Source: Alphaproteobacteria bacterium
GTDB lineage: Bacteria > Pseudomonadota > Alphaproteobacteria > JAEULC01
Direction: 5' to 3'
Assembly: GCA_023150455.1 (NCBI GenBank)
Contig: JAKLKW010000001.1
Span: forward strand, 74,907-138,906
Length of the DNA stretch: 64,000 nt
Position 1 is the stretch's first letter, and each line of letters starts with the position of its first letter. The position numbers and the translations under genes were made by a program. Of the stretch, positions 11,460-41,015 are shown piece by piece. The notes under the pieces were generated by a model, which saw only the letters and a program-made list of their open reading frames with translations, had not been told where the DNA came from and did no database searches.

Positions 11460-12389
11460 CTACGCCGACTTCGCGCGCTTCGGCTTCTCGAGTTTCGGCC
11501 GGTTGGCGAGGGCCTTCTTGACGACGGCCTCGACGCGCGCGCGCTCTTCGCCGGCCAAGGGCAGGCGCGGGGGGCGGCAGCGGTCGTTGCTGTCGATCAC
11601 CAGCGCCTCGACCAGCTTGATGTTCTGCACGAGCTTGGTGGAGACGTCGAGGTCGAGCAGCGGCTGGAACCAGCGATAGACGGCGAGCGCCTCGTCCATG
11701 CGGCCGGCGCGCGCCAGGTTCCACACCGCCATGGTCTCGTCGGGGAAGGCGCACACCAGGCCCGCGACCCAGCCGACCGCGCCCATGGCGAGGCTCTCCA
11801 GCGCCAGGTTGTCGACGCCGGTGAAGATGCGATAGCGGTCGCCCGTGAGGTTGATGATCTTGGTCACGCGCCGCACGTCGTCGGACGATTCCTTGACCGC
11901 GACGAACAGCGGATCGGCGGCGAGCTCGGCCAGCACCGGCGGCGTCAGGTCGACGCCGTAGGCGACCGGGTTGTTGTAGATCATGACCGGCAGGCCGCCG
12001 GCCTTCGCCACGGCGCGGAAATGCGCCACGGTCTCGCGCGGGTCAGACTTGTAGGGCAGGCCGGGCAGCACCATGAACCCGGCCGCTCCCGCCTTGGCAC
12101 CGGCCTCGGCCATCGCCTGGGCGCGCCGTGTCGAGCCGTCGCACACCGTCAGCAGCACCGGGACGCGGCCCTTGGCGACGCGCAGCGCCGTCTTCAGCAC
12201 CTCGAGCTTCTCCTCGGAGTCGAGCGTCGAGGCCTCGCCCAGCGAGCCGCAGACGATCAGCCCGTGCACGCCGGCGTCGACCTGCAGCGCGAAGCAGCGC
12301 TCCATCTCGGCGACGTCCAAGCGATCGGCTGTCGTGAACTTGGTCGTCACGGCAGGGAACACGCCCTGCCAGGTGCTCTTCGATGCCAC
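11460..12389 (-). CDS. Dihydrodipicolinate synthase family lyase (DapA/NAL-family class I aldolase)
   Basis: 309 aa; DHDPS-family layout (..GLIVCGSLGE..; K-containing strand VAVKESS), typical size and composition. Confidence 0.8.
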   Translation of the reverse strand: MASKSTWQGVFPAVTTKFTTADRLDVAEMERCFALQVDAGVHGLIVCGSLGEASTLDSEEKLEVLKTALRVAKGRVPVLLTVCDGSTRRAQAMAEAGAKAGAAGFMVLPGLPYKSDPRETVAHFRAVAKAGGLPVMIYNNPVAYGVDLTPPVLAELAADPLFVAVKESSDDVRRVTKIINLTGDRYRIFTGVDNLALESLAMGAVGWVAGLVCAFPDETMAVWNLARAGRMDEALAVYRWFQPLLDLDVSTKLVQNIKLVEALVIDSNDRCRPPRLPLAGEERARVEAVVKKALANRPKLEKPKRAKSA

Positions 12390-12541
12390 GTTTCACCCCC
12401 TTGGGACGGCTAACTGGGACAATTCTTAGCAAGATTGTCGATTTTATACAATATGCAATCCAGCGGTCCGACGTCCGGACGAGCGGTGCGTGGGGCTTGC
12501 ATGCTGGTTCCGACTAGAATCGCGGCAACGATCGGGAGAAA

Positions 12542-12978
12542 GCCATCAGCACGCGCACCGAGCCCCCGTTTCGCGCCGACCATGTCGGCAGTCTGCTGCG
12601 CCCGCAGAAGCTGCTGGACGCGCGCGAGCGGCGCAAGCGTGGCGAGATTACCGCCGAGGCGCTCGCCAAAGTCGAGGACACGGCGATCCGCGACGCCGTC
12701 CGGCTTCAGGAGGACATCGGTCTCGACTCCGTCACCGACGGCGAGTTCCGCCGCACCTGGTGGCATCTCGACTTCCTGGAGAAGTTCGACAACGTCACGG
12801 TCATCCCGCCGCGCGTCAAGGTGAAGTTCCACACGCACGAGGGCGACATCGAGCTGGAGCCGCCGGGACTGCGAGTCGACGGCAAGCTCGACCGCGGCAA
12901 GCCGATCTTCGTCGACCACTTCCGCTTCGTGAAGACGGCCACGCGGAAGACGCCCAAGCAGACCATTCCGTCGCCCAG
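12542..12978 (+). pseudogene. Remnant of a cobalamin-independent methionine synthase II family (MetE-like, about 370 aa when intact) gene: N-terminal roughly 145 codons only
   Basis: Frame translates to TRTEPPFRADHVGSLLRPQKLLDARERRKRGEITAEAL..IRDAVRLQEDIGLDSVTDGEFRRTWWHLDFLEKFDNV...KPIFVDHFRFVKTATRKTPKQTIPSPS, matching the conserved N-terminus of this family. Similarity stops after IPSPS and the frame runs into unrelated sequence. No ATG/GTG/TTG at the expected start (GGGAGAAAGCC-ATC-AGC, ATC where ATG is expected). Confidence 0.6.
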
Positions 12979-13026
12979 CTCAGGCTCGTGGTCGAGACCG
13001 CGCGCGAGGTCTGGGGCGGCTGACAG

Positions 13027-13326
13027 TCAGAACGTCTGCCCGGCCAGGCTTGCCGGCAGCGAGATCGGAGCGTCACCGGCCGCCAGCTGGCAGGTACGGC
13101 CGCTCGGGTGCCTCAGGATGAGCGACCAGTGCCCGTCCTCCGCGCGCACGGCCTCGACGGTGGCGCCGTGCGCCGTCATGGCGATGGCACCGGGCTTGTC
13201 GAGATGCCGCTCCTTGATCTGCGCCAGGAGGTCGCCGCGTTCGATGCAGGGTGCGGGTTGAGCCAGGACCGGCGCCGCGAGCGACATCGCCATGGCCAGC
13301 AGCATGGCGGCGAATCGACACGTCAT
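13027..13326 (-). CDS. Small secreted hypothetical protein (99 aa, Sec signal peptide MTCRFAAMLLAMAMSLAAPVLAQ)
   Basis: Clear N-terminal signal peptide with AxA-like cleavage site; no recognisable family. Confidence 0.4.
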   Translation of the reverse strand: MTCRFAAMLLAMAMSLAAPVLAQPAPCIERGDLLAQIKERHLDKPGAIAMTAHGATVEAVRAEDGHWSLILRHPSGRTCQLAAGDAPISLPASLAGQTF

Positions 13327-13798
13327 GGGGTCCTCCTGCTTGATGGGCCGTCAACCGGCGATCCGGTTCCGGATGTCGGATATCGTTGTTCCACGGCCGT
13401 GATTTCACCCTGAAACGCGTGGCTTCCCCGGCGGTTCCGGCGATGCCACGGGCGGTGCGGTGCAACGCCGCGGCGAGTCGTGCGTTTGCGATGCAGCAAT
13501 GACGGGAGAACACGCATGCACGGCAGGGCGAAATCGGGAGCGCAACGGATCGAAGAAGACAACGAGGCCGCCGATGGCCGCGGCAAGGCGCCTCGCGTCG
13601 AGGCCTTCGTCATCGGCCAGGTGGCCGGCCGGCCGCTTTATCTCGTGATCGGCGAGGACGCCGAGCATCGCCTCGCCGCTGGTCTGCCCTTCAACGACGG
13701 CTGAGGCCGGCGGCGCTGAAACCAATCTGTGTCCGGACCGTTTGCCGACCGCGCGGCGCCCGGGGCGGTGGCGCGCCGATCATGTGAGGAGCGACGCA

Positions 13799-27870: not shown

Positions 27871-28824
27871 ATGACGGCCAAGGTATTCGCGTCGCAGGGC
27901 GACCTCGCGGCGAAGCAGGAGAAATTCGTCAAGCTGGCGGACAACGCCTACTGCCTGACGGCCGAAGGCGACCCGAATACGGGCATCATCATCGGCAACG
28001 ACGGCGTCATGGTGATCGACACGCGCGCCACGCCGGCCATGGCCGAGGACGTCATCCGCCATGTCCGCGCCGTCACCGACAAGCCGTTCAAGTACGTGCT
28101 GCTCACGCACTACCACGCCGTCCGGGTCATGGGCGCCTCGGCCTACAAGGCCGACTACGTCATCGCGAGCCAGGGCACCTACGAGCTGATCAAGGAGCGC
28201 GGCAAGCAGGACTTCGACAGCGAGGTGCAGCGCTTCCCGCGCCTGTTCCGCTCGGTCGAGTCGGTGCCGGGCCTCACCCGGCCGAACCTGGTGTTCGAGA
28301 ACGCGCTGACCCTGTGGATGGGCAAGACCGAGGTGCAGATCAGGCATATCGGCAAGGGCCACTCCAAGGGCGACACGATCGCCTGGCTGCCGCAGGAGCG
28401 CGTGATGTTCGCCGGCGACCTGGTGGAGGAAGGCACGACGCCCTATTGCGGCGATGCCTATCTCAAGGAATGGCCGGCGACGCTGGAGAAGCTGCGCGGC
28501 TTCAAGCCGGAGATGCTGGTGCCCGGCCGCGGCGATGCGATGATGACCGCCGAGGCCAGCGACAGGGCGATCGCCGCTACCGCCGGCTTCCTGCGCGACA
28601 TGCGCAGCGCGGTGGAGGCCGGCGTCAAGGCGGGCAAGGACCTGAAGGCGGTGTTCGAGGAGACGTCGCGCAGGCTGCAGCCGAGATACGGCCGGTGGGT
28701 CATTTTCGAGCACTGCCTGCCGTTCAACATCTCGCGCTGCTACGACGAGGTTTCCGGCATCACCGACCCGCGCATCTGGACGGCCGAGCGCGACATCGAG
28801 ATGTGGAAGGCGCTGCAGGGGTAG
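27871..28824 (+). CDS. MBL-fold metallo-hydrolase
   Basis: Metallo-beta-lactamase-like motif LLTHYHAVRVMG and downstream His/Asp ligand candidates (GKGHSKGDT); 317 aa. Confidence 0.75.
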   Translation: MTAKVFASQGDLAAKQEKFVKLADNAYCLTAEGDPNTGIIIGNDGVMVIDTRATPAMAEDVIRHVRAVTDKPFKYVLLTHYHAVRVMGASAYKADYVIASQGTYELIKERGKQDFDSEVQRFPRLFRSVESVPGLTRPNLVFENALTLWMGKTEVQIRHIGKGHSKGDTIAWLPQERVMFAGDLVEEGTTPYCGDAYLKEWPATLEKLRGFKPEMLVPGRGDAMMTAEASDRAIAATAGFLRDMRSAVEAGVKAGKDLKAVFEETSRRLQPRYGRWVIFEHCLPFNISRCYDEVSGITDPRIWTAERDIEMWKALQG

Positions 28825-28841
28825 GGCGCGTGGCCGACCTG

Positions 28842-30032
28842 ATGCGGGGCCTGCGGGTCCTCGACCTCACCAACGTGCTGGCCGGTCCGTTCTGCTGCTT
28901 CCAGCTCGCGCAGCTGGGGGCCGAGGTGATCAAGGTCGAGGTGCCCGAGACGGGCGACCTCGCGCGTGAGCTGGGCGCGGCGCCCGAGCTCAACCGACGC
29001 AGGATGGGCGCATCGTTCCTGGCGCAGAATGCCGGCAAGCGCTCGATCACCATCAACCTGAAGGACGGGAAGGGGAAGGAGATCTTCCGCCGTCTGGCCG
29101 CAACGGCCGACGCGGTGGTGGAGAATTTCCGTCCCGGCGTGATGGAGCGGCTCGGCCTCGGCTACGATGCGCTGGCGCGCATCAAGCCCGACCTGGTCTA
29201 TTGCGCCATCTCCGGCTTCGGGCAGGACGGGCCCTTGCGCGACAACCCGGCCTACGACCAGATCATCCAGGGCTTCTCCGGCGTCATGAGCGTCACGGGC
29301 GACGCCCGGAGCGCGCCGTTGCGCGTGGGCTATCCGGTCGCCGACACGATGGGCGGCATCACGGCGGCCTTCGCCATCGCCGCCGCGCTGCTGAAGCGCG
29401 AGCGCACCGGAAAGGGCGAGTTCATCGACGTGTCGATGCTCGAGGCCACGCTGGTGGCGATGGGCTGGGCGGTGTCGAACTGGCTGATCGCCGGCGTGAA
29501 GGGCGAGCCGATGGGTAACGAGAACGTGACGGCAAGCCCGTCCGGCACCTTCGCGACCGGCCATGGCCCCCTGAACATCGCCGCCAACAAGCAGGCGCAG
29601 TTCGAGAGGCTGTGCAACGTCATCGGCCGGCCCGAGCTGATCGCGGATCCGCGCTTCGCCCATCGCGAGGATCGCCTCGTCAACCGCGCGGCGCTGAAGG
29701 CGGAGATCGAGAATGGCCTCCAGCGCGATTCCGCGCGCAACTGGGCCGAGCTCCTGAACCGCCACGACGTGCCGGCGGGCGAGGTGCTCTCGGTGCCGGA
29801 GGTGCTGGAGCACGCGCAGGTGCGCGAGCGTGGTTTCATCAAGCGCTTCGACACGGTTACGGGCGTCGACCGGCCCGTCGCCATGGTGCGCGCCGGCTTC
29901 AAGCTTGGGAGCGGCGATCCCGCGCCCGAGCTGCCGCCGCCGCCGCTCGGCGCCGATACCGACGCCATCCTCGGTTCGCTCGGCTACTCGGGCGACGAGA
30001 TCGCCGCCTTCAGGGCCGACAAGACCATCTGA
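28842..30032 (+). CDS. Family III CoA-transferase (CaiB/BaiF/Frc family)
   Basis: N-terminal LRVLDLTNVLAGPFCCFQLAQLGAEVIKVE, and NFRPGVMERLGLGYD with catalytic-Asp region; 396 aa. Start ATG 28842 (GTG 28830 is an alternative). Confidence 0.85.
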   Translation: MRGLRVLDLTNVLAGPFCCFQLAQLGAEVIKVEVPETGDLARELGAAPELNRRRMGASFLAQNAGKRSITINLKDGKGKEIFRRLAATADAVVENFRPGVMERLGLGYDALARIKPDLVYCAISGFGQDGPLRDNPAYDQIIQGFSGVMSVTGDARSAPLRVGYPVADTMGGITAAFAIAAALLKRERTGKGEFIDVSMLEATLVAMGWAVSNWLIAGVKGEPMGNENVTASPSGTFATGHGPLNIAANKQAQFERLCNVIGRPELIADPRFAHREDRLVNRAALKAEIENGLQRDSARNWAELLNRHDVPAGEVLSVPEVLEHAQVRERGFIKRFDTVTGVDRPVAMVRAGFKLGSGDPAPELPPPPLGADTDAILGSLGYSGDEIAAFRADKTI

Positions 30033-30070
30033 CGTCTCGCCCGGCTGCCTCGCCACGAAAGGGCTCTGCC

Positions 30071-30883
30071 ATGGACACGCGCAACGCCGCCGAGGACTGG
30101 TGGCGCACCTCGATCATCGAGATGCGCCCGAACGTCATCCGCTTCCGCGGCTACCCGATCGAGGAGCTGATCGGCAATGTCGGCTTCCCCGGCATGATCT
30201 GGCTGATGCTGAGGGGCGAGCTGCCGACCCAGGCGCAGGCAGACCTGCTGGGCGCGGCGATGGTCGCGGGCGTCGATCACGGACCGCAGGCGCCGTCGAT
30301 CGCCATCGCCCGCATGGCGATCACCTGCGGCGTCGGCATCAACGGCGCCATGGCCTCGGCCGCCAACGTGCTGGGCGACGTGCACGGCGGCGCCGGCGAG
30401 CAGGCGCTCGCGCTCTACGAGCGGGTGCTGCGGCGCCAGGCCGAAGGGGCGTCGCTCGAGGATGCCGCCGCGGCGGAGCTCGATGCGCTGGCCGCGCGCG
30501 GGGTCGCGCACGTGCCCGGCTTCGGCCATCGCTTCCACACCGAGGACCCGCGGCCGCCGCGCATGTTCGAGCTGATCGACCGCGCCGTCGCCGCAGGCGC
30601 CGTTTCCGGCAAGGTCGCTGCCGCCGCGCGGGCGATCGACGCCGCGCTGGCGCGCAAGAAAGGCAGGCGCATCACCATGAACATCGACGGCGCGACGGCG
30701 GCGGTCTATGGCGAGCTGGGCTTCCCCGCGCCGCTCGCGCGCGGCCTGTTCGTTCTGTCGCGCTCGGTCGGCATCCTGGCGCATGCCTGGGAACAGTCGC
30801 AGCAGGGCGGCCGCAACAAGGGCCCGATCCCGCGCGAGTGCCTATGGACCTATGACGGGCCCACGTTGCGCCACGTGGAGTAG
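30071..30883 (+). CDS. Citryl-CoA lyase-like / citrate-synthase-fold small protein (about 270 aa)
   Basis: Citrate-synthase-like C-terminal domain residues (..VPGFGHRFHTEDPR.., ..MNIDGATAAVY..). Confidence 0.65.
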   Translation: MDTRNAAEDWWRTSIIEMRPNVIRFRGYPIEELIGNVGFPGMIWLMLRGELPTQAQADLLGAAMVAGVDHGPQAPSIAIARMAITCGVGINGAMASAANVLGDVHGGAGEQALALYERVLRRQAEGASLEDAAAAELDALAARGVAHVPGFGHRFHTEDPRPPRMFELIDRAVAAGAVSGKVAAAARAIDAALARKKGRRITMNIDGATAAVYGELGFPAPLARGLFVLSRSVGILAHAWEQSQQGGRNKGPIPRECLWTYDGPTLRHVE

Positions 30884-30918
30884 CGACCCTCGCCCGCCTG
30901 CGACGAGCACGGGGAAAA

Positions 30919-33090
30919 TCACGCCGGCTTCATCACCCTGAACCGCGCATCCCCGTCGCGCTCGATCTGCGGGACGAGCGCGACCTCCCAGGTCAGGTAC
31001 TCGCGCATCTTCTGCTCGGGCGCGCCGCGGTTCTCGTAGGGCTTGTACCAGACGTCCTCCGGCGGGTCGGCCCATTGCTCGTCGCCGGCCTCGAGCCGGT
31101 GGCCGGCGGCGCGCCAGGCCTCGGTGCCGCCGTCGAGCACCAGCACCTTGCGCGCCGTCCTGGGCGCGAGGTCGCGCGCGGCGAACCGCGCGAGCGTGCC
31201 GTCGGGCGAGGCCAGCACGATCGGGCCGTCGCCCGGCAGGCTGGCGACGGTGTCGCCGAGCCGCGCGCGAATTACGAACCAGGCGCCGGGAATATGCGCC
31301 GCGCGGTACCTGAGGCTCGTGTCCAGGTCGACGACGGTCACGCGGCCGAGCTGCCGGTCGAGATCGTCGGCCGCGATCGTCGCGACCGCGGCGTCGTCGC
31401 CCAGCACGGTCGCCTTCTCCGGACCCTTCTCGAGCTTCTGCCCGTCCAGCGCCTTGTCTAGCACGTAGACCTCGCGCCAGCCCATCTGGATCAGCCAGGA
31501 CGCCGTCATGACGGCGCGCACCGCCTCGCCGTCGATCAACACGAGTCGCGCGTTCAGCGTGCCGACATACTGGTCGGTCGCCTGCACCAGCTGGCCGCCC
31601 GGCGCCGAGCGGCTGCCCGGCAGGTGGCCGGCCTCGTACTCGGCCGGGCTGCGCACGTCGAGCACGTAGAGGGAATGCCTGTCCGCCTCGGCGCGGAAGC
31701 GCGCGAGGGCGGCATGGTCGATGCGTCGCACGCCGAAGCGCCCGGCCACGCTCCGGGCCGCTGCCTGCGCGCGCTCGAGGCCCTCGGGTCCCGGCGCCGG
31801 GGCGTGCTGCGTCTTGCCGTGGTCCAGCTTCAGCCCGGCGAGGTGCCAGCCCATCGTGCCGTTCTTCAGCGCCATGACCTTGTTGGGCAGCCCGGCGTTG
31901 ACCAGCGACTGCGTGCCGATGATGCTGCGTGTCCTGCCGGCGCAGTTCACCACGACCAGCGTCTCGGGCGACTTCACCAGGTCGAAAGCGCGGTAGACCA
32001 GCTCGGCGCCCGGGCAGTCGATGCCGCCGGGGATGCTCATGCGCCGGTACTCCTCCAGCGGCCGGCTGTCGAGGATGACGATGTCCTCGCCGCGGTCGAG
32101 CCGCGCCTTGAGCTCGGTCGGCTCGATGCGCGGTGTGCCGCATTTGTGCTCGACGATCTCGCCGAAGGCCTTGCTCGGCACGTTGACGCCGCTGAACAGC
32201 TCGTAGCCCGCCTTCTGCCAGCCGCGCACGCCGCCCTTGAGAACGGCGATGTTCTTGTAGCCGAGGTCGAACAGGCGATAGGCGGCGCGCTGCGCCAGGG
32301 CGCCGCCGTCCTCGTCGACCACGACCACGCGCGTCGCTCGCCGCGGCACCAGCGCGTCGGCGCGCAGCTCCAGGTGGCTCACCGGCAGCGGCACGGCGAA
32401 CAGCAGGTGCTCGCTCGCGAATACGCCCTCCTCGCGCACGTCCAGGATCGCAAGCTCCCCGCCGTCGCGGATCATGGCCTTGAGGGCCTGTGGCGTGACC
32501 TCGGGCGTCGAGATGTTGGGGCTGGCCGGGAAGATCTTGTAGGCGCCGCCCTCGGACGTCGCGAAGCTGATGCGCTCGGGCAGGTGCTCCAGGCTGCGGC
32601 CATAGAGATGCAGGTGCAGCGCCTTCTCGTTTCCCAGCACCTCGATCGTGTGAAAGTCGTCGGGCAGGAACGACACGGCGTTGCCCTTGACCACGGTCAG
32701 CTCGCCGGTCTTGCGGAGGCGGCCCTCGCCCGGCACCGAGCGGTTGTCGATGCGCTCGTAGAAGACGTTGTGCTCCTTGCCGTAGACGCCGGCGATCACG
32801 GCCCAGGTCGTGTGGTTGTGCGGCGGCTGCGCCTTGCCCGGCAATCCCGCCGACGCGTAGAGGGCGAAGCGGTGATCGGCGTCCTCGGCCAGGCGGAAGA
32901 TGCGGCCATGGCTGCCGTCGAACACCTGGAACTGCTCGGGCGGGAACAGCTCGGTGCGCGAGGCGAGATCGATCAGCACGGGCTTGATCCGCGCCAGTGC
33001 CGCCTGCGTGACGCCGTCCTCCTGCTCGATGCGGCGCACCTTGGCGATCGTGTCGGCGACGGCCTGATGGCGGGCATCCATGGTCGACAT
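30919..33090 (-). CDS. Fusion protein: cysteine-dioxygenase-type (3-His) cupin thiol dioxygenase domain followed by four tandem rhodanese modules (only the second has the catalytic Cys loop)
   Basis: N-terminal cupin with PHNHTTWAVIAGVYG...H in FLPDDFHTIEV (CDO/3-mercaptopropionate-dioxygenase-like H-x-H...H triad). Four rhodanese-like modules: LDVREEGVFASEHL (loop VVVDEDGG, Asp), LDSRPLEEYRRMSIPGG (loop VVVNCAGRTRS, Cys), LDVRSPAEYEAGHLPGS (loop LVLIDGEAV, no Cys), VVDLDTSLRYRAAHIPG (loop IVLASPDGT, no Cys). Start at ATG 33090 (33081 also possible; 33189 would overlap tctA). Confidence 0.8.
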   Translation of the reverse strand: MSTMDARHQAVADTIAKVRRIEQEDGVTQAALARIKPVLIDLASRTELFPPEQFQVFDGSHGRIFRLAEDADHRFALYASAGLPGKAQPPHNHTTWAVIAGVYGKEHNVFYERIDNRSVPGEGRLRKTGELTVVKGNAVSFLPDDFHTIEVLGNEKALHLHLYGRSLEHLPERISFATSEGGAYKIFPASPNISTPEVTPQALKAMIRDGGELAILDVREEGVFASEHLLFAVPLPVSHLELRADALVPRRATRVVVVDEDGGALAQRAAYRLFDLGYKNIAVLKGGVRGWQKAGYELFSGVNVPSKAFGEIVEHKCGTPRIEPTELKARLDRGEDIVILDSRPLEEYRRMSIPGGIDCPGAELVYRAFDLVKSPETLVVVNCAGRTRSIIGTQSLVNAGLPNKVMALKNGTMGWHLAGLKLDHGKTQHAPAPGPEGLERAQAAARSVAGRFGVRRIDHAALARFRAEADRHSLYVLDVRSPAEYEAGHLPGSRSAPGGQLVQATDQYVGTLNARLVLIDGEAVRAVMTASWLIQMGWREVYVLDKALDGQKLEKGPEKATVLGDDAAVATIAADDLDRQLGRVTVVDLDTSLRYRAAHIPGAWFVIRARLGDTVASLPGDGPIVLASPDGTLARFAARDLAPRTARKVLVLDGGTEAWRAAGHRLEAGDEQWADPPEDVWYKPYENRGAPEQKMREYLTWEVALVPQIERDGDARFRVMKPA

Positions 33091-33160
33091 GGCCGGTATT
33101 CCTGCGGCTGGAAGTGGAGACCGAAGTGTGGCGCAAATCGGCCGGGGTGGCAAAGAGGGC

Positions 33161-34642
33161 CTAGCGTGCCCGCAGCCGCCGCCAACCATGCGCCAGGGCC
33201 GGCGCGCTGAGGCCCAAGATCGTCAGCGCGAACAGCAGCACCACGATCGGGCGCGACAGGAACAGCAGCCAGTTCTGGTCGAAGATCAGCAGCGACTGCT
33301 TGAACGTCTCCTCGACCATGCGTCCCAGCACCAGGCCCATGATCAGCGGCGCGGGCGAGAAGCCGAAGCGGCGGAACAGCAGGCCGAGCACGCCGAAGAC
33401 CAGCATCGTGCCGACGTCGAACATCGACTGGTTCGGCGCATAGGCGCCGACGACCGACAGCACGAACACGCCGGGCCACAGATAGGCCGGCGGGATCAGC
33501 GTCACGCGCGCGAACAGCTTGGCGGCGCCGAGGCCGAGCACGAGATAGAGCAGGTTGGCCGCCAGCATCGAGGCGAACACGACATAGAGCAGGGTCGGCT
33601 GCTCGTTGAACAGGTGGGGGCCTGGGCGCACGCCCTGCACGATCAGCCCGACCAGGATGATGGCGGTCGTGGCGCTGCCGGGGATGCCGAGCGCCAGCGT
33701 CGGCACCATGGCGCCGCCGACCGCGGCGTTGTTGGCGGCCTCGGGGCCCGCGACGCCCTCGATCGCGCCGCGGCCGAACTCGAGCTTGTGCTTCGACCAG
33801 CGCCGGCTCTCGTTGTAGCAGATCATGGCGGCCGTGGTGGCGCCCAGCGCCGGCAGCGTGCCGATGAAGGTACCGATGCCGCTCGACAGGATGATCGCCT
33901 TTGCGCATTTGCGGAAATCGGCCAGGCTCGGCAGTTTCACCGCGCTCAGCTTGATGTATTCCTTCACCACGTTGCCGTGCGCGGCCTGCTCCAGCAACTC
34001 GGCCATGGCGAACAGGCCGATCAGCACGGGGATGAACTCGATCCCGTCGCTCAAGGCGTAGATGCCGAAGGTGAAGCGCTCGACGCCCGTGGTCAGGTCG
34101 AGTCCGACGGTGGCCAGCAGCACGCCGAAGGCGGCCGACAGCAGGTTCCTGGTCGGCGAGTCGCCGCCGATCGCCGCCACCATCGACAGGCCGAACACGG
34201 CGAGCGCGAAGTATTCGGGCGGGCCGAAATTATAGGCGGCGCGCGCCAGCAGCGGCGCGGCGACGATCAGCACGAACACGCTGAAGATCCCGCCGATGGC
34301 GCTGGAGATCGCGGAAATGCCGAGCGCCTTGCCCGCTTCGCCGCGCGCTGCCATCGGGTAGCCGTCGAATGCGGTGGCGGAGGCCGACGGGTCGCCCGGG
34401 GCGTTGATCAGGATCGCCGTGATCGAGCCGCCGAAATTGGCCGCGCAGTAGATCGATCCGAGGAAGGCGAGCGCGCCGGTCGGCGGCATGGTGATCGTAA
34501 GGGGCAGCAGGAGCGCCGTCGTGGTGCTGCCGCTGATTCCGGGCAGCGCGCCGACGATGATGCCGAGCAGCGTGCCGGCGAACACGAGGAACAGCATGTA
34601 GGGATCGACGAGGATCCCCATGCCGGCGAGGAAGGCGTCCAT
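33161..34642 (-). CDS. tctA: Tripartite tricarboxylate transporter (TTT) large permease TctA
   Basis: 493-aa polytopic protein with typical TctA N-terminus (..VFAGTLLGIIVGALPGISGSTTTALLLPLT..) and duplicated structure. Confidence 0.9.
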   Translation of the reverse strand: MDAFLAGMGILVDPYMLFLVFAGTLLGIIVGALPGISGSTTTALLLPLTITMPPTGALAFLGSIYCAANFGGSITAILINAPGDPSASATAFDGYPMAARGEAGKALGISAISSAIGGIFSVFVLIVAAPLLARAAYNFGPPEYFALAVFGLSMVAAIGGDSPTRNLLSAAFGVLLATVGLDLTTGVERFTFGIYALSDGIEFIPVLIGLFAMAELLEQAAHGNVVKEYIKLSAVKLPSLADFRKCAKAIILSSGIGTFIGTLPALGATTAAMICYNESRRWSKHKLEFGRGAIEGVAGPEAANNAAVGGAMVPTLALGIPGSATTAIILVGLIVQGVRPGPHLFNEQPTLLYVVFASMLAANLLYLVLGLGAAKLFARVTLIPPAYLWPGVFVLSVVGAYAPNQSMFDVGTMLVFGVLGLLFRRFGFSPAPLIMGLVLGRMVEETFKQSLLIFDQNWLLFLSRPIVVLLFALTILGLSAPALAHGWRRLRAR

Positions 34643-34655
34643 CAGCCCGGCCTTT

Positions 34656-35153
34656 TCACGACCACAGCGCGCCGAGCATGCTGCGCGGGAAGCTCACGCC
34701 CACGAAGCGGACGAACAGCAGGTAGATCGCGGTGCACAAGGCTCCGGCGCTGAGCACGAGCGGCAGCAGCCGGCGCTCGCCCCACATCCGGCCCAGCCCG
34801 ACCAGGAGCAGGAACGAGGACGGGAACATGCCGATCAGCTCGACCGCGCCCATGAAGGCGAACAGCACGGCGCCGGTCGCCCACACGCGCGCCGGCAGCG
34901 GCGGCATCGGACCGAGCGGCGCGACGCCGACGCCGAGCGCGATCAGCAGCGACAGGATCGCCATGACGACGAGGACGAGTCGCGGAAACAGCTCGGCACC
35001 CAGCCCGCTCATCAGTGCCTCGGGCACGCTGTCGAAGGTGTAGGTCAGGCCATAGACGAGTGCCGAGAACGCCAGCGCCGAGAAGGCGACGACGCGGTCG
35101 ATCGCGCCCGGCGAGGGCGAGCCCCCGCCGGGCCGGCCGGACGATCCCGACAT
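34656..35153 (-). CDS. tctB: TTT small membrane subunit TctB
   Basis: 165 aa, 4 TM, located between tctC and tctA with 3- and 13-nt spacers. Confidence 0.75.
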   Translation of the reverse strand: MSGSSGRPGGGSPSPGAIDRVVAFSALAFSALVYGLTYTFDSVPEALMSGLGAELFPRLVLVVMAILSLLIALGVGVAPLGPMPPLPARVWATGAVLFAFMGAVELIGMFPSSFLLLVGLGRMWGERRLLPLVLSAGALCTAIYLLFVRFVGVSFPRSMLGALWS

Positions 35154-35156
35154 CGC

Positions 35157-36152
35157 CTACTTCAGGAGGCCGATCGACTTCAGCGCCTCGGCACCTTCGT
35201 TGTAGAAGGCGTCGAGCTGCGCCTGCCATTCCTTGCGCCCGACCACGCTGTCCGGCGACTGGCCGGAGCTCTCGATGTAGGACGCGTACATCTTGCCCTT
35301 CATCGCCTTGACCAGCCCTTCTTCCAGGGCCTTGAGGTTCTCTTCCGGCACGCCCTTCAGCGTCACGAAGCCGCGCACGGTCGAATAGCTGGCGTCGAGG
35401 CCGAGGTCCTTCGAGCACGGTACGTCGGGCAGGGGCCCCAGGCGCTTCGGCGCCAGCACCAGCAGCGGGCGCACGTCGCCCGACTTGATCTGTGAATCGG
35501 CCTCGGCGTAGTTCAGGATGCCGACGTCGACGTTGCCGCCGACGACGTTGATCACGATGTCGCCGCCGCCGCGGAACGGCACGACGGTCGGCTTCTCCTG
35601 ACCGGCCTTCTTGGCGAAACCCAGCACGGCCAGGTGGTCGACGCCGCCAAGCTGCGTGGCGCCGTATTTCATCGACTTCTTCTTGCCCGCCTCCAGGAAG
35701 TCCTTCGCCGTCTTGTACGGGCTGTTCTTGCCCGCCATCAGCACCTGCGGGTCGTCGGTCGCGCGCGCCAGGGCCACGATCTCGGCGTACTTCACCGGCG
35801 CCTTGCCCTGGATCATGGTCAACAGATGCGTCTGCGTGATCAGCATGATCGTGTAGCCGTCGCGCGGGCGGCTGTTGGCGTAGGCAAGCGCCGCGCCGCC
35901 GCTGCCGCCCACCTTGTTGACCACGGCCAGCTCGGTCTTGAACACGCCCGGCGCATGCACCATCATCATGCGCGCCGTGATGTCCGTGCCGCCGCCGACC
36001 CCGGCATGCGTCACCACCTCGATCGTCTTGGACGGGAACTTCTCCTGTGCCCGCAACGGGCTCCAGGCCAGCGCCGTCGTGGCTGCGGCGCCTGCGGCGA
36101 AGGCGCGGCGCGTGAGCGCGAGGCTGCGGTGGTCGGTGATCTTCCTGGTCAT
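35157..36152 (-). CDS. tctC: TTT periplasmic substrate-binding protein TctC (Tat signal RRAFAAGAAATTALA)
   Basis: Bug/TctC-family body (..VVNKVGGSGGAALAYA.., ..PFRGGGDIV..); perfect SD AAGGAGG 7 nt upstream of ATG 36152; the upstream part of the 610-aa ORF is read-through. Confidence 0.9.
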   Translation of the reverse strand: MTRKITDHRSLALTRRAFAAGAAATTALAWSPLRAQEKFPSKTIEVVTHAGVGGGTDITARMMMVHAPGVFKTELAVVNKVGGSGGAALAYANSRPRDGYTIMLITQTHLLTMIQGKAPVKYAEIVALARATDDPQVLMAGKNSPYKTAKDFLEAGKKKSMKYGATQLGGVDHLAVLGFAKKAGQEKPTVVPFRGGGDIVINVVGGNVDVGILNYAEADSQIKSGDVRPLLVLAPKRLGPLPDVPCSKDLGLDASYSTVRGFVTLKGVPEENLKALEEGLVKAMKGKMYASYIESSGQSPDSVVGRKEWQAQLDAFYNEGAEALKSIGLLK

Positions 36153-36193
36153 GGTCGTCTCCTCCTTGCTTTGTCTGTCTTGCCTGCGCCGGG

Positions 36194-36952
36194 TCACGCG
36201 CCGGCGGCAGCCTTGCGGCGGCGCGGCGCGGGTTGCGCCGGAGCCTGCTTGTCGTTGTCCAGGGTCTTCAAGAGCCGCGCCTTGCCCGCGAGGATATGCG
36301 CCTCCATCAGCGCCGCGGCGCGCTGCGGGTCGCGCGCGGCAAGCGCGTCCAGAATGGCGCGATGCTCGCGGTTGGAGATCCGCATGACGCCTTCCGACAC
36401 CAGGCCGCGGCGGCGGAACAGGTGCAGCTCCTTCGCCAGATTGCGGTAGGTCGCGGTCAGGTGCGCGTTGCCACAGAATTCCACCAGCGTGGAATGGTAT
36501 TCGACGTTGAGGGGGTAATAGGCGTCGATGTCTTCGACCGCCTTCTCCATCGCCTCGACCAGCGCGGTCAGGCGGGTAAGCTGCGCCGGGGTGATGCGCG
36601 CGGCCAGCGTGCGGCCGGCGAAGCCGAACAGCGCGCCGCGCAGGTCGTAGATGTCGAGCGCCTGCTGCAGGCCGATCTGGCGCACGAAGGTGCCGCGATT
36701 GACCTGCACCTCGACCAGCCCGCTCTGCTCCAGCCCGCGGCAGGCCTCGCGGATCGGTCCGCGGCTGACGCCCAGCCGCTCGGCCAGGGCGTTCTCGTTC
36801 AGGCGGTCGCCGGCCTGGAGCTCGCCCGTCACGATCATGCGCTCGAGCTCCTTGCGCACGAGCGAGGCGAGCGATTCCGTGCGCCTGATCTTCAGCGCCA
36901 GCGCGGTGTCGCCCCCCTCGTCCTTGGGCGTGCGATCGGCCTGCTCGTCCAT
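36194..36952 (-). CDS. GntR family transcriptional regulator (FadR/FCD subfamily)
   Basis: N-terminal wHTH (..LNENALAERLGVSRGPIREACRGLEQSGLVE..) plus C-terminal FCD-type helical domain; 252 aa. Confidence 0.85.
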   Translation of the reverse strand: MDEQADRTPKDEGGDTALALKIRRTESLASLVRKELERMIVTGELQAGDRLNENALAERLGVSRGPIREACRGLEQSGLVEVQVNRGTFVRQIGLQQALDIYDLRGALFGFAGRTLAARITPAQLTRLTALVEAMEKAVEDIDAYYPLNVEYHSTLVEFCGNAHLTATYRNLAKELHLFRRRGLVSEGVMRISNREHRAILDALAARDPQRAAALMEAHILAGKARLLKTLDNDKQAPAQPAPRRRKAAAGA

Positions 36953-37088
36953 CGAACCCTATCAGGCCGACGCGGTTGTGAATTGTCAACAGTTTTCACT
37001 TTGTCCAAACTCTGCTATCCGTCGCTGCTGCGCGCGCCCGCGCCTGAAGCTGCGGCGGGCCTACGCTTGGCTTAAGGTCCAGGGGTCC

Positions 37089-38288
37089 ATGATGCCGTTC
37101 CGTCCCGCCTCGTCCGCGCTCAAACGCTTCACCGTGCTCGACCTCACGCGCGTGCGGTCCGGCCCGACGGCGGTGCGGCAGCTGGCCGACTGGGGCGCCA
37201 ACGTCATCAAGATCGAGATGCCGGAAGGGCTCGAGCCGGGCGACGCGCCGGGCGGGCCGCGCCACGGCTCGGACTTCCAGAACCTGCACCGCAACAAGCG
37301 CAGCATGACGCTGAACCTGAAGTCGCCCGAGGGCGTCGAGATACTCAAGGCGATGGCCGGGAAGGCGGACGCGATCGTCGAGAACTTCCGCCCCGACGTG
37401 AAGACGCGGCTCGGCATCGACTACGAGGCGATGCGCGCGGTCAACCCGCGCATCGTCTACGGCAGCATCTCGGGCTTCGGCCAGGACGGGCCGTATCGCG
37501 ACCGGCCGGGCTTCGACCAGATCGCCCAGGGCATGGGCGGGCTGATGTGGATCACCGGCATGCCGGGGCAGGGACCGGTGCGCGTCGGCATCCCGATCGC
37601 CGACCTCACCGCCGGCATCTTCTGCGCCTACGGCATCGTCGTGGCGCTGCTCGAGCGCGAGGTGTCGGGCCAGGGCCAGTGGGTGCACACCTCGCTGCTG
37701 CAGGCGCAGATCTTCATGCTCGACTTCCAGGCCTCGCGCTGGCTGATGGACGGCGAGGTGCCGCCGCAGGCGGGCAACAACCATCCGACCAGCATCCCGA
37801 CCGGCGTGTTCAAGACCGCGGACGGCCACATCAACATCGCCGTCACCGGCCGCAAGATCTGGGAGCGGTTCTGCCACGCGATCGGCGCCGCCGACCTGAT
37901 CGACCACAAGGACTATGCGACTGCCGCCGACCGGTCGAAGAACCGCAACGCGCTCAATGCCGAGATCGAGAAGCGGCTCCAGGGCATGGGCAGCGACGCG
38001 GTGATCGAGAAGCTCAACGCCGCGGGCGTGCCCTGCGGACAGATCTACAAGATGGACCAGGTCTTCGCCGATCCGCAGGTCGAGCACCTGAAGACCTATG
38101 TCGAGATCGACTCGCCCGCCCGCGGCCCGGCCACCAGGTTCGTGGCCCAGCCGGTCCGGCTCGAGCGCACGCCGAGCTCGGGCCAGCTGCCGCCGCCCGG
38201 GATCGGCCAGCACACGGACGAGATCCTGCGCGAGTTCGGCTACGACGACGCGGCGATCGCCGGCTTCCGCCAGCGCCGCGTCGTCTGA
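37089..38288 (+). CDS. Family III CoA-transferase (second copy; CaiB/BaiF/Frc family)
   Basis: FTVLDLTRVRSGPTAVRQLADWGANVIKIE, ENFRPDVKTRLGIDYE; 399 aa; divergent from gntR. Confidence 0.85.
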   Translation: MMPFRPASSALKRFTVLDLTRVRSGPTAVRQLADWGANVIKIEMPEGLEPGDAPGGPRHGSDFQNLHRNKRSMTLNLKSPEGVEILKAMAGKADAIVENFRPDVKTRLGIDYEAMRAVNPRIVYGSISGFGQDGPYRDRPGFDQIAQGMGGLMWITGMPGQGPVRVGIPIADLTAGIFCAYGIVVALLEREVSGQGQWVHTSLLQAQIFMLDFQASRWLMDGEVPPQAGNNHPTSIPTGVFKTADGHINIAVTGRKIWERFCHAIGAADLIDHKDYATAADRSKNRNALNAEIEKRLQGMGSDAVIEKLNAAGVPCGQIYKMDQVFADPQVEHLKTYVEIDSPARGPATRFVAQPVRLERTPSSGQLPPPGIGQHTDEILREFGYDDAAIAGFRQRRVV

Positions 38289-38310: not shown

Positions 38311-39099
38311 ATGACGACGGAAAAGATGCTGGCGCGCAAGGACGGCGCCGTCGGCTGGATGAAGTTCAACAACCCCGAGCGGCACAATGCCGTGTCCCTC
38401 GAGATGTGGCGCGCGGCGGAGAAGATACTGTCCGACTTCGCCGAGGATCCGGCGGTGCGCGTCATCGCCATCACCGGCGCCGGCGGCAAGGCCTTCGTGT
38501 CGGGCGCCGACATCTCGAAGTTCGAGAGCGAGCGCGCCTCGATGGAGGCGGTCGAGCACTACAACAGGACGACCGCCCGCGTGTACAGCATGCTGAACGA
38601 CATCGGCAAGCCGACCATCGCCATGATCCGCGGCTACTGCATCGGCGGCGGTGTGGCGCTGGCCGTGTGCTGCGACCTGCGCATCTGCTCGGACAACTCG
38701 AAGTTCGGCGTGCCGGCGGCCAAGCTCGGGCTCGGCTATGCCCTGCCGGGCATCAAGCGGCTGGTCGACCTGGTCGGTCCTTCCTTCGCCAAGGAGATCT
38801 TCTTCACCGCCCGCCAGTTCTCGGCCGCGGAAGCGGCGGTGATGGGCCTCGTCAACCGGGTCGTGCCCGAGGCCGAGCTGCAGGACTACGTGCAGAACTA
38901 CGCCGACACGATCGCCGGCAACGCGCCGCTCACCGTATGCTCGGTCAAACGGATCGTCGGCGAGGCGCTGAAGGACGCCGAGCAGCGCGACGTCGCCCTG
39001 TGTGAGCGCCTGGTCAAGGAATGCTTCGGCAGCCAGGACTACATCGAGGGCCGCCGCGCCTTCATGGAGAAGCGCAAGCCTGCATTCGTCGGGCGGTAG
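38311..39099 (+). CDS. Enoyl-CoA hydratase/isomerase (crotonase) family protein
   Basis: Crotonase fold blocks (..ITGAGGKAFVSGADISKF.., ..IAMIRGYCIGGGVALAVCCDLRI..); 262 aa. Confidence 0.85.
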   Translation: MTTEKMLARKDGAVGWMKFNNPERHNAVSLEMWRAAEKILSDFAEDPAVRVIAITGAGGKAFVSGADISKFESERASMEAVEHYNRTTARVYSMLNDIGKPTIAMIRGYCIGGGVALAVCCDLRICSDNSKFGVPAAKLGLGYALPGIKRLVDLVGPSFAKEIFFTARQFSAAEAAVMGLVNRVVPEAELQDYVQNYADTIAGNAPLTVCSVKRIVGEALKDAEQRDVALCERLVKECFGSQDYIEGRRAFMEKRKPAFVGR

Positions 39100-39230: not shown

Positions 39231-41015
39231 ATGTCTGCCCCCGGAGGAACCATGCCCGTGCTTTCCACCGACACGACGACCGCGGCGCCGCAGGGGATCG
39301 CCTCGCTGAGGCCGACCATCGCGGCGCATGACCACATGGCGGTGGCCGGGCATTACGGCGCGGCGCATGCGGCCTTCCGCGTGCTCGAGGCAGGCGGCAA
39401 CGCGGTCGATGCCGGCGTCGCCGGCGGCATCGCGCTCGGGGTGCTGCAGAGCGACATCGTGAACGTGGCCGGCGTGGCGCCGATCCTGATCTACCTGGCC
39501 GAACGCGACGAGGTGGTGTCGATCGCCGGGCTCGGCACCTGGCCCGCCGCGGCCGATGTCGAGCGCTTCCGGCGCGAGTTCGGCGGCCATGTCCCGAGCG
39601 GCATCCTGCGCACCGTCGTGCCGGCGGCACCCGCCGCCTGGATCGCCGCGCTCGAGCGCTTCGGCACGATGAGCTTCGGCGAGGTCGCCGCGGCCGCGAT
39701 CCGCTTCGCGCGCGACGGCTTCGCGCTGCACCAGCTGATGGCCGAGATCATCGCCGAGCACGAGGCCGACTACCGCAAGCAGCCGGAGAAGGCGGCGATC
39801 TACCTGCCGGGCGGCCGTCCGCCCAGGGCCGGCGACAAGTTCGTGCAGGCCGACCTCGCGCGCACACTGCAGTTCATGGCCGACGAGGAGAGGAAGGCGG
39901 CCGGCAGGGGGCGCGCGGCGGGGCTCCAGGCCGCGCGCGACGCCTTCTACAAGGGAGACATCGCCCGGGCGATCGTCAAGCATCACCGCGCCAACGGCGG
40001 CTGGATGGAAGCGGCGGACCTCGCCGGCTTCGCTGCCGAGATCGAGCCGGCGGTGCGCGTGCGCTACAAGCAGTACGACGTCTTCACCTGCCCGGCCTGG
40101 TGCCAGGGCCCGGCCATGGCCCAGGCCTTCAAGCTGGTCGACGGCATCGACCTGCGCGGCCTCGGGCACAACTCGCCGGCCTACCTGCACGTCGTGGCCG
40201 AGGCGCTGAAGCTCGCCTTCGCCGACCGCGAGCGCTATTTCGGCGATCCGCGCTTCGTCGACGTGCCGGTCGCGCGCCTGCTGTCGGACGACTACATCCG
40301 CGCGCGGCGTGCCCTGATCCGTCCCGACCGCGCCTTCCCGGGCCTGCCGCCCGCGGGCGAGCTCGGCGGGCGTGGCGGCGCCGAGCCGCGGCCCTCGGCG
40401 GCGGCATCGCGGCCGGCGCTCGACACGTCCTATGTCTGCGTCGTCGACAAAGAGGGCAACGCCTTCTCGGCGACGCCGAGCGACAGCTCCTATGACGGCG
40501 AGGTGATCCCCGGCACCGGCCTGGTGCCGTCGACGCGCGGCAGCCAGAACTGGTGCGAGCCTTCGCATCCCTCGGTGGTGGCGCCCGGCAAGCGCCCGCG
40601 CCTGACGCCGAGCCCGGCGCTGGCGCTGGGCCGGCGCGGCCGCAAGGGCAGGGAGGTGCTTCCCTTCGGCACGCCGGGCGGCGACGTGCAGATCCAGGCC
40701 ATGCTGCAAACCTTCCTCAACCGCGTCGAGTTCGCCATGGAGCCGCAGCGCGCGGTCGAGCAGCCGCGCATCGCCACCTACAGCTTCCCGGACTCGTTCG
40801 AGCCGCACGGCTACCAGCCCGGAAGGCTCAACCTCGAGGCCCGCCTGCCGCGCGCCACAGGCGAGGCGCTCGCCGCCCTCGGCCACGACGTGCAGTGGTG
40901 GCCGCAGTGGATCTGGCGCGCCGGCGCCACCTGCCTGATCCACAGCGACCCCGACACCGGGCTGCTGTCCGCCGGCGCCGACCCGCGCCGCGCCTGCTAC
41001 GCGCTGGGGTGGTGA
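39231..41015 (+). CDS. Gamma-glutamyltransferase family protein (second GGT paralog, no signal peptide)
   Basis: N-terminal GGT block (..AGHYGAAHAAFRVLEAGGNAVDAGVAGG..) and nucleophile region RPALDTSYVCVVDKEGNAFSATPSD; 594 aa from ATG 39231. Confidence 0.8.
   Translation: MSAPGGTMPVLSTDTTTAAPQGIASLRPTIAAHDHMAVAGHYGAAHAAFRVLEAGGNAVDAGVAGGIALGVLQSDIVNVAGVAPILIYLAERDEVVSIAGLGTWPAAADVERFRREFGGHVPSGILRTVVPAAPAAWIAALERFGTMSFGEVAAAAIRFARDGFALHQLMAEIIAEHEADYRKQPEKAAIYLPGGRPPRAGDKFVQADLARTLQFMADEERKAAGRGRAAGLQAARDAFYKGDIARAIVKHHRANGGWMEAADLAGFAAEIEPAVRVRYKQYDVFTCPAWCQGPAMAQAFKLVDGIDLRGLGHNSPAYLHVVAEALKLAFADRERYFGDPRFVDVPVARLLSDDYIRARRALIRPDRAFPGLPPAGELGGRGGAEPRPSAAASRPALDTSYVCVVDKEGNAFSATPSDSSYDGEVIPGTGLVPSTRGSQNWCEPSHPSVVAPGKRPRLTPSPALALGRRGRKGREVLPFGTPGGDVQIQAMLQTFLNRVEFAMEPQRAVEQPRIATYSFPDSFEPHGYQPGRLNLEARLPRATGEALAALGHDVQWWPQWIWRAGATCLIHSDPDTGLLSAGADPRRACYALGW

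Follow-up and report, generated by a model that had tools for sequence, protein, structure and literature searches.

The DNA analysed here (the window) is a stretch of 64,000 nucleotides from an alphaproteobacterial genome (assembly GCA_023150455.1, contig JAKLKW010000001.1, positions 74,907 to 138,906). Between positions 30919 and 36952 its minus strand carries five co-directional genes: a gntR-type regulator gene with an FCD domain, tctC, tctB, tctA, and a gene for a 723-aa protein which joins a predicted thiol dioxygenase to a rhodanese body (the fusion). All five had been named in an earlier note made from the sequence alone, and open reading frames (ORFs) and Pfam matches agree with it on each. 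The successive gaps along gntR-tctC-tctB-tctA-fusion are 41, 3, 13 and 70 nt, and the gene lengths are reproduced by independent gene calls on other assemblies. The fusion gene occupies 30919-33090 (minus strand). Its ORF, its homologues, an AlphaFold2 (AF2) model and Foldseek matches indicate a thiol dioxygenase of the mercaptosuccinate dioxygenase (MSDO) family followed by a four-rhodanese body.

The dioxygenase half comprises residues 1-187 (32530-33090, minus strand). It is assigned as a cupin thiol-dioxygenase domain from its phmmer match to structure 8VNI, from residue mapping and from invariance in 54 homologues. 8VNI is the MSDO of Variovorax paradoxus B4, and the match to it covers residues 2-185 with an E-value of 4.5e-38. 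Matches to the other solved-structure sequences are far weaker; E is ~5e-6 for 3-mercaptopropionate dioxygenases (3MDO) and 1e-4 for a cysteine dioxygenase (CDO). Identity of the window cupin to Variovorax MSDO is 38-40%, but to 3MDO only 18-20%. The earlier note had read a CDO-type cupin with a triad of iron-binding histidines into the motifs PHNHTTW and DDFHTIE, and rightly so: both motifs are present, and their histidines fall on those that bind iron in the solved MSDO, His93, His95 and His149. In the 2026 MSDO structure paper the outer sphere around these ligands consists of His161, His163 and Tyr165, and Arg175 forms a salt bridge to the iron-bound carboxylate. Residues H91, H93, H147, H159, H161, Y163 and R173 of the fusion correspond to H93, H95, H149, H161, H163, Y165 and R175 of MSDO. 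All seven mapped active-site residues are invariant in the alignment of 54 homologues (61-90% identity), and the 3-His iron site is kept in essentially all representatives of the cupin family. Identification of the N-terminus as a CDO-family thiol dioxygenase, with MSDO as its nearest relative, is well supported by these alignments and by the model described below; the predicted cupin fold and iron chemistry can be considered secure. The fusion cupin is likely to bind a thiolate together with a neighbouring carboxylate.

This half of the protein is hidden in database names by a gap in the domain models. A Pfam scan of the N-terminal 197 aa returned no family even at E = 10, and NCBIfam returned no CDO model. 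The Variovorax Msdo orthologue likewise has no precomputed Pfam match; the missing match thus reflects a model gap and is not evidence against homology of the fusion cupin. NCBI lists proteins P0001-P0120 simply as 'sulfurtransferase' or 'rhodanese-like domain-containing protein'; the JGI (IMG) names alone hint at a double-stranded beta-helix enzyme.

The part of the active site that reads the far end of the substrate has changed. In MSDO the distal-carboxylate pocket is made up of Gln64, Arg66 and Asn82 (2026 MSDO structure paper). The fusion has Gly62, Ile64 and Ser80 at these positions, so the pocket is not kept, and because of these replacements the exact thiol substrate is uncertain. An arginine, R66, which is at least 90% conserved, lies two residues further on in the strand, where MSDO has Leu68. 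Among 131 family representatives, this 'Arg+2, Ser' signature defines the clade which holds the window protein. Its sister clade carries the MSDO signature Gln-x-Arg-x-Leu...Asn and consists mainly of free-standing proteins. Fusion is not confined to one clade, since P0222 (725 aa) is fused yet carries the canonical MSDO signature.

The C-terminal ~530 residues (198-723) match the whole length of structure 1YT8 (phmmer E 8e-141, residues 10-526 against 15-529). 1YT8 is a 539-aa 'thiosulfate sulfurtransferase' of Pseudomonas aeruginosa, which we take to be PA2603; it is 49% identical to the rhodanese half. No paper on this structure was found in a literature search. Pfam detects four rhodanese stretches in the fusion ORF (E 1.2e-47), so the profile search that the earlier note had proposed recovered the rhodanese half and missed the cupin, which is seen only through solved structures. 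The note had counted four rhodanese repeats. Four modules are indeed present, but only one of them has a catalytic cysteine; the others have Asp, Asp and Ser. Module 1 (32194-32499; best Pfam stretch, 199-294) has Asp259, module 3 (31450-31728; Pfam, sequence) has Asp520 and module 4 (31087-31380; NCBIfam, sequence) has Ser628 (codon 31207-31209), each of them invariant. Module 2 (31831-32133) is assigned as the catalytic one from sequence and invariance. It holds C383 (codon 31942-31944) in the loop N-C-A-G-R-T-R-S-I-I-G; the loop VVVNCAGRTRSIIG (CAGRTRS) is invariant in the 54 homologues. The catalytic-loop segment VNCAGRTRSIIG is identical in the fusion, in 1YT8 and in the partner protein from Variovorax, and the segment VNCAGRTRSIIGTQSL is also common to the fusion and 1YT8. 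A conserved helical tail, recognised from alignments and the model and common to 1YT8 and the Variovorax rhodanese protein, completes the C-terminus (30922-31086). All these features are on the minus strand. The fusion holds only three cysteines: C317, which is not conserved, C359, and C383. It can be read as having one rhodanese active site, not four.

Some differences from 1YT8 are found within this half. C359 lies in module 2 and is invariant in the fused family; 1YT8 has Val at this position. Conversely, module 4 of 1YT8 has a Cys (LTCGSS) where the fused family has the invariant Ser628. The fused family and the 1YT8 lineage may use different cysteine sets.

An AF2 model of the whole protein, built from the 54-sequence alignment, has a mean pLDDT of 92.6 and a pTM of 0.92. 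The first Foldseek match in the PDB is 1YT8 (TM 0.96 on the target, root mean square deviation (rmsd) 1.8 A, 526 columns); the second is 8VNI (TM 0.90, rmsd 1.9 A), which gives a cupin beta-barrel fold. As modelled, the fusion is essentially two solved proteins joined. The linker between them (residues 186-198; 32497-32535, minus strand) appears to match the C-terminal active-site lid of MSDO, as the alignment to 8VNI ends there. Linker residues A189, P191 and I193 are invariant or nearly so in the 54 homologues. In MSDO, the C-terminal loop shuts over the active site when substrate binds (2026 MSDO structure paper). By this correspondence, the rhodanese body would be tethered to the lid segment of the dioxygenase.

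The longest reading of the fusion ORF begins at 33189 and overlaps tctA. The start is instead placed at 33090, on the strength of over 100 homologues, 719-730 aa long, whose alignments span 99-100% of the 723-aa version. In Variovorax and Pseudomonas each half has a gene of its own, as might be expected if an assembly or frameshift artefact had joined two genes in the window. Such an artefact is scarcely conceivable given more than 100 full-length homologues (55-90% identity) in independent assemblies, including complete Stella genomes, together with the conserved residues at the junction and the confident whole-protein model. A single chain with no frameshift or stop between cupin and rhodanese, as the earlier note had it, is what these homologues and junction residues support.

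The separate genes are informative about the origin of the fusion. The Variovorax cluster (locus L082) consists, in order, of a divergent LysR gene, msdo (196 aa), a 27-nt gap, a gene for a 548-aa rhodanese protein, tctC, and a pyridoxal phosphate (PLP) lyase of the Cys/Met-metabolism type. Residues 195-719 of the fusion are 43% identical to the 548-aa protein over its full length (E 2e-121). This order agrees with the statement in the earlier note that betaproteobacteria have a separate rhodanese and a TctC near the dioxygenase (see also PMC5373536). In Advenella, genes for Msdo, a cystathionine beta-lyase and a rhodanese are side by side (PMC5373536). In P. protegens and P. aeruginosa, 3mdo (PA2602) and the downstream tst (PA2603) appear to be one transcription unit. 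Sequence comparison identifies the fusion gene as a head-to-tail join of this known pair, msdo plus rhodanese in Variovorax and 3mdo plus tst in Pseudomonas. The rhodanese halves are 43-51% identical across the systems, whereas the dioxygenase halves are 18-40% identical among themselves.

The Variovorax MSDO shares with the fusion the cupin fold, the 3-His iron site, the His-x-His-x-Tyr motif, the carboxylate-binding Arg and a four-rhodanese partner. Apart from the pocket (Gln64/Arg66/Asn82 as against Gly/Ile/Ser with an Arg two residues on), the systems differ in that Variovorax has two proteins, a LysR regulator, an orphan TctC and a PLP lyase; the window has one chain, a GntR regulator, a complete TctCBA set and no PLP lyase nearby. 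The Pseudomonas 3MDO (PA2602; 4TLF/3USS) and PA2603 have the same order as the fusion, dioxygenase then four-rhodanese protein, but they are encoded by separate genes and the dioxygenase is distant. The best explanation of the fusion is that it is a bifunctional thiol dioxygenase-rhodanese which traps the sulfur product of its own dioxygenase, and that the transporter unit beside it is independent. On balance we think this probable. The covalent join of dioxygenase and rhodanese in hundreds of species argues that the two work together directly.

The unit is found in three topologies. All components are separate in Variovorax and Advenella, the dioxygenase and rhodanese are fused in the window and in Stella, and a lyase and a dioxygenase are fused beside a separate rhodanese in locus L095. 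In the last of these (L095, 6001-9410) a 599-aa protein combines a PatB-type cysteine-S-conjugate beta-lyase (E 4.7e-73 to 6QP3) with an MSDO-like cupin, and 8 nt further on is a separate gene for a 533-aa four-rhodanese protein, 51% identical to the rhodanese half of the window protein. A convergent molybdopterin oxidoreductase and a glutathione S-transferase (GST) adjoin this module. A PLP lyase 44-48% identical to that of Variovorax lies directly 3' of the fusion in eight loci (L005, L033, L052, L054, L062, L072, L077 and L078); in L054 its gene is at 12156-13364. The cupin family itself falls into length classes: ~200 aa for free-standing proteins, ~290 aa for a cupin with one rhodanese-sized extension, and 600-780 aa for fused proteins. 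P0153, P0196, P0239 and P0200 (~282-296 aa) are MSDO-like cupins with a C-terminal extension of ~100 residues which has no cysteine. The extension of P0153, the one scanned of the ~290-aa class, has no Pfam match. This class may represent a minimal arrangement of dioxygenase plus module 1.

The repeated presence of a PLP lyase with the dioxygenase-rhodanese pair suggests that the thiol may in many cases arise inside the cell, out of a cysteine S-conjugate. It may be that lyase, dioxygenase and rhodanese are the true module and that the transporter is unrelated; mercaptosuccinate, for example, could be released from S-(2-succino)cysteine by a beta-lyase. The lyases in the Variovorax and Advenella msdo clusters, the eight loci with a lyase directly downstream of the fusion and the lyase-cupin protein of L095 all speak for this, as does an amino-acid ABC transporter beside msdo in Advenella which is induced on mercaptosuccinate (PMC5373536). 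On the other hand, neither type of PLP beta-lyase was found when the 64-kb window was searched, most fusion loci have no lyase nearby, and a literature search found no paper proposing a lyase reaction from S-(2-succino)cysteine to mercaptosuccinate. For the window we consider a lyase-derived thiol doubtful, if worth keeping in mind.

The fused form is common. A search of protein collections gave at least 8000 matches; the best 120 are all full-length proteins of ~720 aa with 61-90% identity, mostly from Alphaproteobacteria (Stellaceae, Rhodospirillales). With one genome counted per species, at least 363 species carry it in their genomes; they belong to the Alphaproteobacteria, complete Stella genomes among them, and to the Burkholderiales. 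A literature search found no paper describing a fusion of a CDO-type cupin with rhodanese, and rhodanese goes unmentioned in the latest MSDO study. The earlier note had called the arrangement uncharacterised. This holds for the fused form, but the arrangement is not unusual, given its spread and a solved homologue for each half. The fused enzyme is an uncharacterised yet widespread variant of a known gene pair.

The neighbourhoods of the fusion were surveyed at 80 genome loci, up to 10 kb on each side, by all-against-all clustering of neighbouring ORFs. No neighbour family was found in more than ~15 of the 80. The neighbours seen include an orphan TctC (15-16 loci, betaproteobacterial), TauD-family dioxygenases (14), a GNAT acetyltransferase (12), a zinc-type dehydrogenase (12), peptide-type binding proteins (12), the PLP lyase directly downstream (8-9) and GST-like ORFs (7). 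In a sister clade of fusions 69-73% identical to that of the window (L003, L004 and L089), moaA is followed by the fusion and then by a convergent major facilitator superfamily (MFS) transporter. Here moaA is directly upstream of and co-directional with the fusion (L003, 8944-9927; L004, 352-1335; L089, 4088-5074).

These moaA genes bear on another possible role of the rhodanese half. MSDO and 3MDO are well studied, but their large rhodanese partner has no assigned role; in Variovorax it was guessed to be cofactor-related. Under this view the rhodanese half would mobilise sulfur for the molybdenum cofactor, or for a thio-cofactor of a sulfite-oxidising molybdoenzyme, and would not act on the product of the dioxygenase. 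It was suggested for Variovorax (PMC5373536), and it fits moaA in the sister clade, the molybdopterin oxidoreductase convergent to the L095 module and the best NCBIfam matches of the fusion, which are the rhodanese domains of MoeB and MoeZ. However, those matches score far below the cut-offs (124.7 as against 449 bits) and reflect the shared rhodanese fold only. The covalent link to a dioxygenase, recurring in several topologies, argues for direct coupling, and the presence of the same partner beside 3MDO would be left unexplained. A cofactor role is improbable.

The other four genes of the set encode a transporter and its putative regulator. tctA (33161-34642, minus strand) encodes the large membrane subunit (493 aa; Pfam TctA E 2.4e-154, 514.4 bits) of a tripartite tricarboxylate transporter (TTT), tctB (34656-35153, minus strand) the small membrane subunit (165 aa; Pfam TctB E 3.8e-12, 47.0 bits) and tctC (35157-36152, minus strand) the periplasmic binding protein (331 aa; Pfam TctC E 2.6e-22, 80.1 bits). 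All three exceed the Pfam cut-offs, so the TTT gene set is complete. TctC starts with MTRKITDHRSLALTRRAF..., a twin-arginine leader (LTRRAF), and matches the TTT binding proteins in the PDB with E-values of 1e-28 to 1e-30; its 80 bits to the Pfam model make it a divergent member among TTT systems. gntR (36194-36952, minus strand) encodes a 252-aa regulator with both the N-terminal GntR winged helix (Pfam, 65.8 bits) and the C-terminal FCD effector domain (105.3 bits). Its score of 251 bits against NCBIfam TIGR03338 (phnR_burk; phosphonate-utilisation-associated regulator, Burkholderia type) is just below the cut-off of 271.5. Divergent from gntR, on the plus strand, are genes for a family-III CoA-transferase (37089-38288) and an enoyl-CoA hydratase (38311-39099), both assigned by Pfam.

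The transporter genes rarely accompany the fusion. A tblastn search with the GntR, TctC, TctB and TctA of the window against the 80 fusion loci found these genes upstream of the fusion only in L001, which is 90% identical and fully syntenic; they are absent in the 79 others. The fusion is also behind tctA in two further assemblies, L087 and L088 (81-82% identity). Adjacency of tctA and the fusion is thus confined to a narrow clade, at least 81% identical, which consists of the window, L001, L087 and L088. The neighbourhood survey that the earlier note had proposed, on whether fusions travel with TTT genes, shows an orphan TctC in 15-16 loci and tctA adjacency only in these close relatives. An orthology of the window TctC with the msdo-linked TctC of Variovorax was considered and rejected, as they are 28-31% identical, no closer than TctCs generally. 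Compared with the other dioxygenase-linked TctCs the window protein is 24-31% identical, while those are 32-41% identical among themselves.

The window TctC has instead a well-populated orthologue set of its own, with 61-92% identity. Six of these loci were examined in context (L084, L085, L086, L092, L093 and L094), and the fusion is absent at all six. In L084 and L093, genes for a family-III CoA-transferase and an enoyl-CoA hydratase run divergently from tctCBA. L092 has gntR-tctCBA divergent from the CoA-transferase and hydratase, which is the layout of the window minus the fusion; in L094, tctCBA, CoA-transferase and hydratase are all on one strand. L085 and L086 have tctCBA alone or with gntR, and Sox genes adjoin the unit in L086. 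Identities to the window proteins in these units are 73-83% for TctA, 61-82% for the CoA-transferase, 49-75% for the hydratase and 51-66% for GntR. By these comparisons the window juxtaposes two independent units: the CoA-transferase and hydratase genes divergent from gntR-tctCBA (Unit A), and the fusion gene (Unit B). Unit A is best read as an older, independently conserved uptake and activation unit, behind whose tctA the fusion was set only in a narrow clade. With its CoA-transferase and hydratase, the unit turns up in assemblies that are unrelated to one another (L084, L092, L093 and L094). As to its type, Unit A is reminiscent of CaiB/CaiD-style modules, here one for taking up a carboxylate and activating it with CoA. 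CaiB/CaiD systems pair a family-III CoA-transferase with a crotonase. In three Stellaceae loci, a CoA-transferase/hydratase pair is found 2-5 kb from the fusion; in L017, which was mapped, unrelated genes are in between.

The spacer upstream of the fusion contains a candidate promoter. A consensus scan of 30700-37300 on either strand found no sigma-70-type promoter, and the gaps among the five genes hold no predicted minus-strand terminator. In the 70-nt spacer between tctA and the fusion there is a promoter-like TTGCCA-17 nt-CACACT (33125-33153, minus strand), which is conserved in all four assemblies of the same layout while the flanking bases vary. In L003, whose fusion follows moaA and not tctA, a closely similar element (CTTTAC...GCGCCACACT) stands ahead of the fusion gene. 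Many other alphaproteobacterial relatives have their own promoter-like pairs of TTGAG(A/C) and TAGCAT-type hexamers upstream of the fusion. This pattern suggests that independent transcription of the fusion gene is possible.

The earlier note had described the five genes as a candidate uptake and desulfuration system for a mercapto- or sulfino-carboxylate, with the fusion 'hard-wired' to transporter and regulator. Spelled out, this would be one dedicated operon: a mercapto- or sulfino-dicarboxylate enters through TctCBA, is sensed by GntR and is desulfurised by the fusion. The identity of the enzyme and the gene order stand. The genes are also co-directional and closely spaced with no predicted terminator, the layout is retained in four assemblies, TTT systems carry carboxylates, and a TctC is found beside msdo in Variovorax and near the fusion in the 15-16 betaproteobacterial loci. 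The hard-wiring is not supported: the transporter link is recent, being absent in the 79 other loci and limited to relatives with 81% identity or more, and the orthologous tctCBA(+gntR) units (61-83% identity) have other conserved partners, the CoA-transferase and hydratase, and occur without the fusion. The low identity of the window TctC to the other dioxygenase-linked TctCs, and a promoter-like element of the fusion's own which is present also without tctA upstream, point the same way. We regard a dedicated uptake and desulfuration operon as rather unlikely. The transporter link at the window should not be used for naming the substrate of the fusion.

For the bifunctional enzyme that we favour, a sequence of steps can be proposed from MSDO. 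In that enzyme the thiolate and the adjacent carboxylate of the substrate bind iron, and O2 is added to give sulfinosuccinate, which yields succinate and sulfite. The fusion cupin would bind a mercapto-carboxylate in the same way, with the thiolate on iron and R173 holding the neighbouring carboxylate, and would add O2 to form a sulfinate. A second anionic group of the substrate would be read by R66 instead of the Gln64/Arg66 pair. If the substrate resembles mercaptosuccinate, the sulfinate would break down to the carbon skeleton and sulfite. A persulfide on C383 would then accept the sulfur oxyanion from the dioxygenase, which may be sulfite or the intact sulfinate; this would yield thiosulfate (or a thiosulfonate), and little free sulfite would be let go. 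Rhodanese cysteine persulfides pass sulfur to sulfite and to sulfinates. Three arrangements, namely adjacent genes, the dioxygenase-rhodanese fusion, and a rhodanese gene after a lyase-dioxygenase fusion, argue for direct coupling of this kind. Conservation of the rhodanese half whatever dioxygenase accompanies it fits action on a common sulfur species.

CstB of Staphylococcus aureus provides an analogy. It is a non-haem Fe(II) dioxygenase which makes a sulfite equivalent and is covalently joined to a rhodanese; the sulfite equivalent is delivered to the persulfidated rhodanese cysteine to give thiosulfate, and sulfite is not released. Its dioxygenase is a metallo-beta-lactamase-fold enzyme whose substrates are persulfides, whereas that of the fusion is a CDO-family cupin. 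The dioxygenase halves are not homologous, and the fusion is not a CstB-type protein. The likeness could go further if the fusion were the cupin counterpart of a persulfide dioxygenase (PDO). The rhodanese would then load sulfane sulfur onto a thiol acid or its own Cys, and the cupin would oxidise the persulfide sulfur, with the thiol acid as carrier and not growth substrate. The architecture does parallel CstB and related PDO-rhodanese fusions, and dioxygenases of differing thiol specificity share a conserved rhodanese partner. Contexts are varied and often sulfur-related: 14 loci have TauD and 7 have GST-like ORFs, and Sox genes are beside one orthologous tctCBA unit without the fusion (L086). 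However, MSDO and 3MDO have been shown to oxidise plain thiols, the carboxylate-binding R173 and a closed small-molecule pocket are retained in the fusion, and persulfide turnover is not known for any CDO-family enzyme. We give this alternative only a slim chance.

Several points weigh against a bifunctional enzyme which is independent of the transporter. Activity of the fused members is predicted from sequence and model. With the distal-carboxylate residues replaced, mercaptosuccinate itself may not be the substrate of the fusion. 3-Sulfinopropionate, the sulfinate derived from 3-mercaptopropionate, is stable, and trapping of sulfite would not follow directly from its formation. In P. protegens, 3-mercaptopropionate levels did not change significantly when tst was deleted; that mutant was not examined further. 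As regards the transporter, the fusion is co-directional with tctA and 70-128 nt behind it in four assemblies, with no predicted terminator in the window; read-through co-transcription from tctA is possible, as is a substrate shared by transporter and fusion.

A broader proposal is that dioxygenase and four-rhodanese protein, often with a C-S beta-lyase, constitute a widespread unrecognised module, which would free a thiol acid, dioxygenate it and form thiosulfate via a persulfidated Cys. We put this forward tentatively and think it more apt to be wrong than right. If true, the three-step module would be a cupin-based counterpart of CstB, and it would give a function to the PA2603-type proteins which accompany 3MDO and MSDO. 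The fused protein offers a single polypeptide for testing whether the sulfur product of a dioxygenase is handed over to a rhodanese cysteine.

Some further features of the locus were noted. An inverted-repeat search around gntR gave GC-rich chance pairs only. By eye, a near-palindrome, GTTGACAATTCACAAC, can be seen at 36975-36990 in the divergent intergenic region, between the gntR start at 36952 and the CoA-transferase start at 37089. It is symmetric at 12 of 16 positions and is also found in L001; as a candidate operator, it may be the site of GntR binding. The hydratase gene is followed at 39231-41015 by a gene for a gamma-glutamyltranspeptidase-family protein without an obvious signal peptide, which is outside the conserved unit in other assemblies. 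Convergent with the fusion, at 27871-30883 on the plus strand, are genes for a metallo-beta-lactamase-fold protein, a second family-III CoA-transferase and a 270-aa citrate-synthase-family protein. The metal motif of the first is THYHAVR, not HxHxDH. This trio is retained in L001 and L087; L088 has it without the citrate-synthase-like gene.

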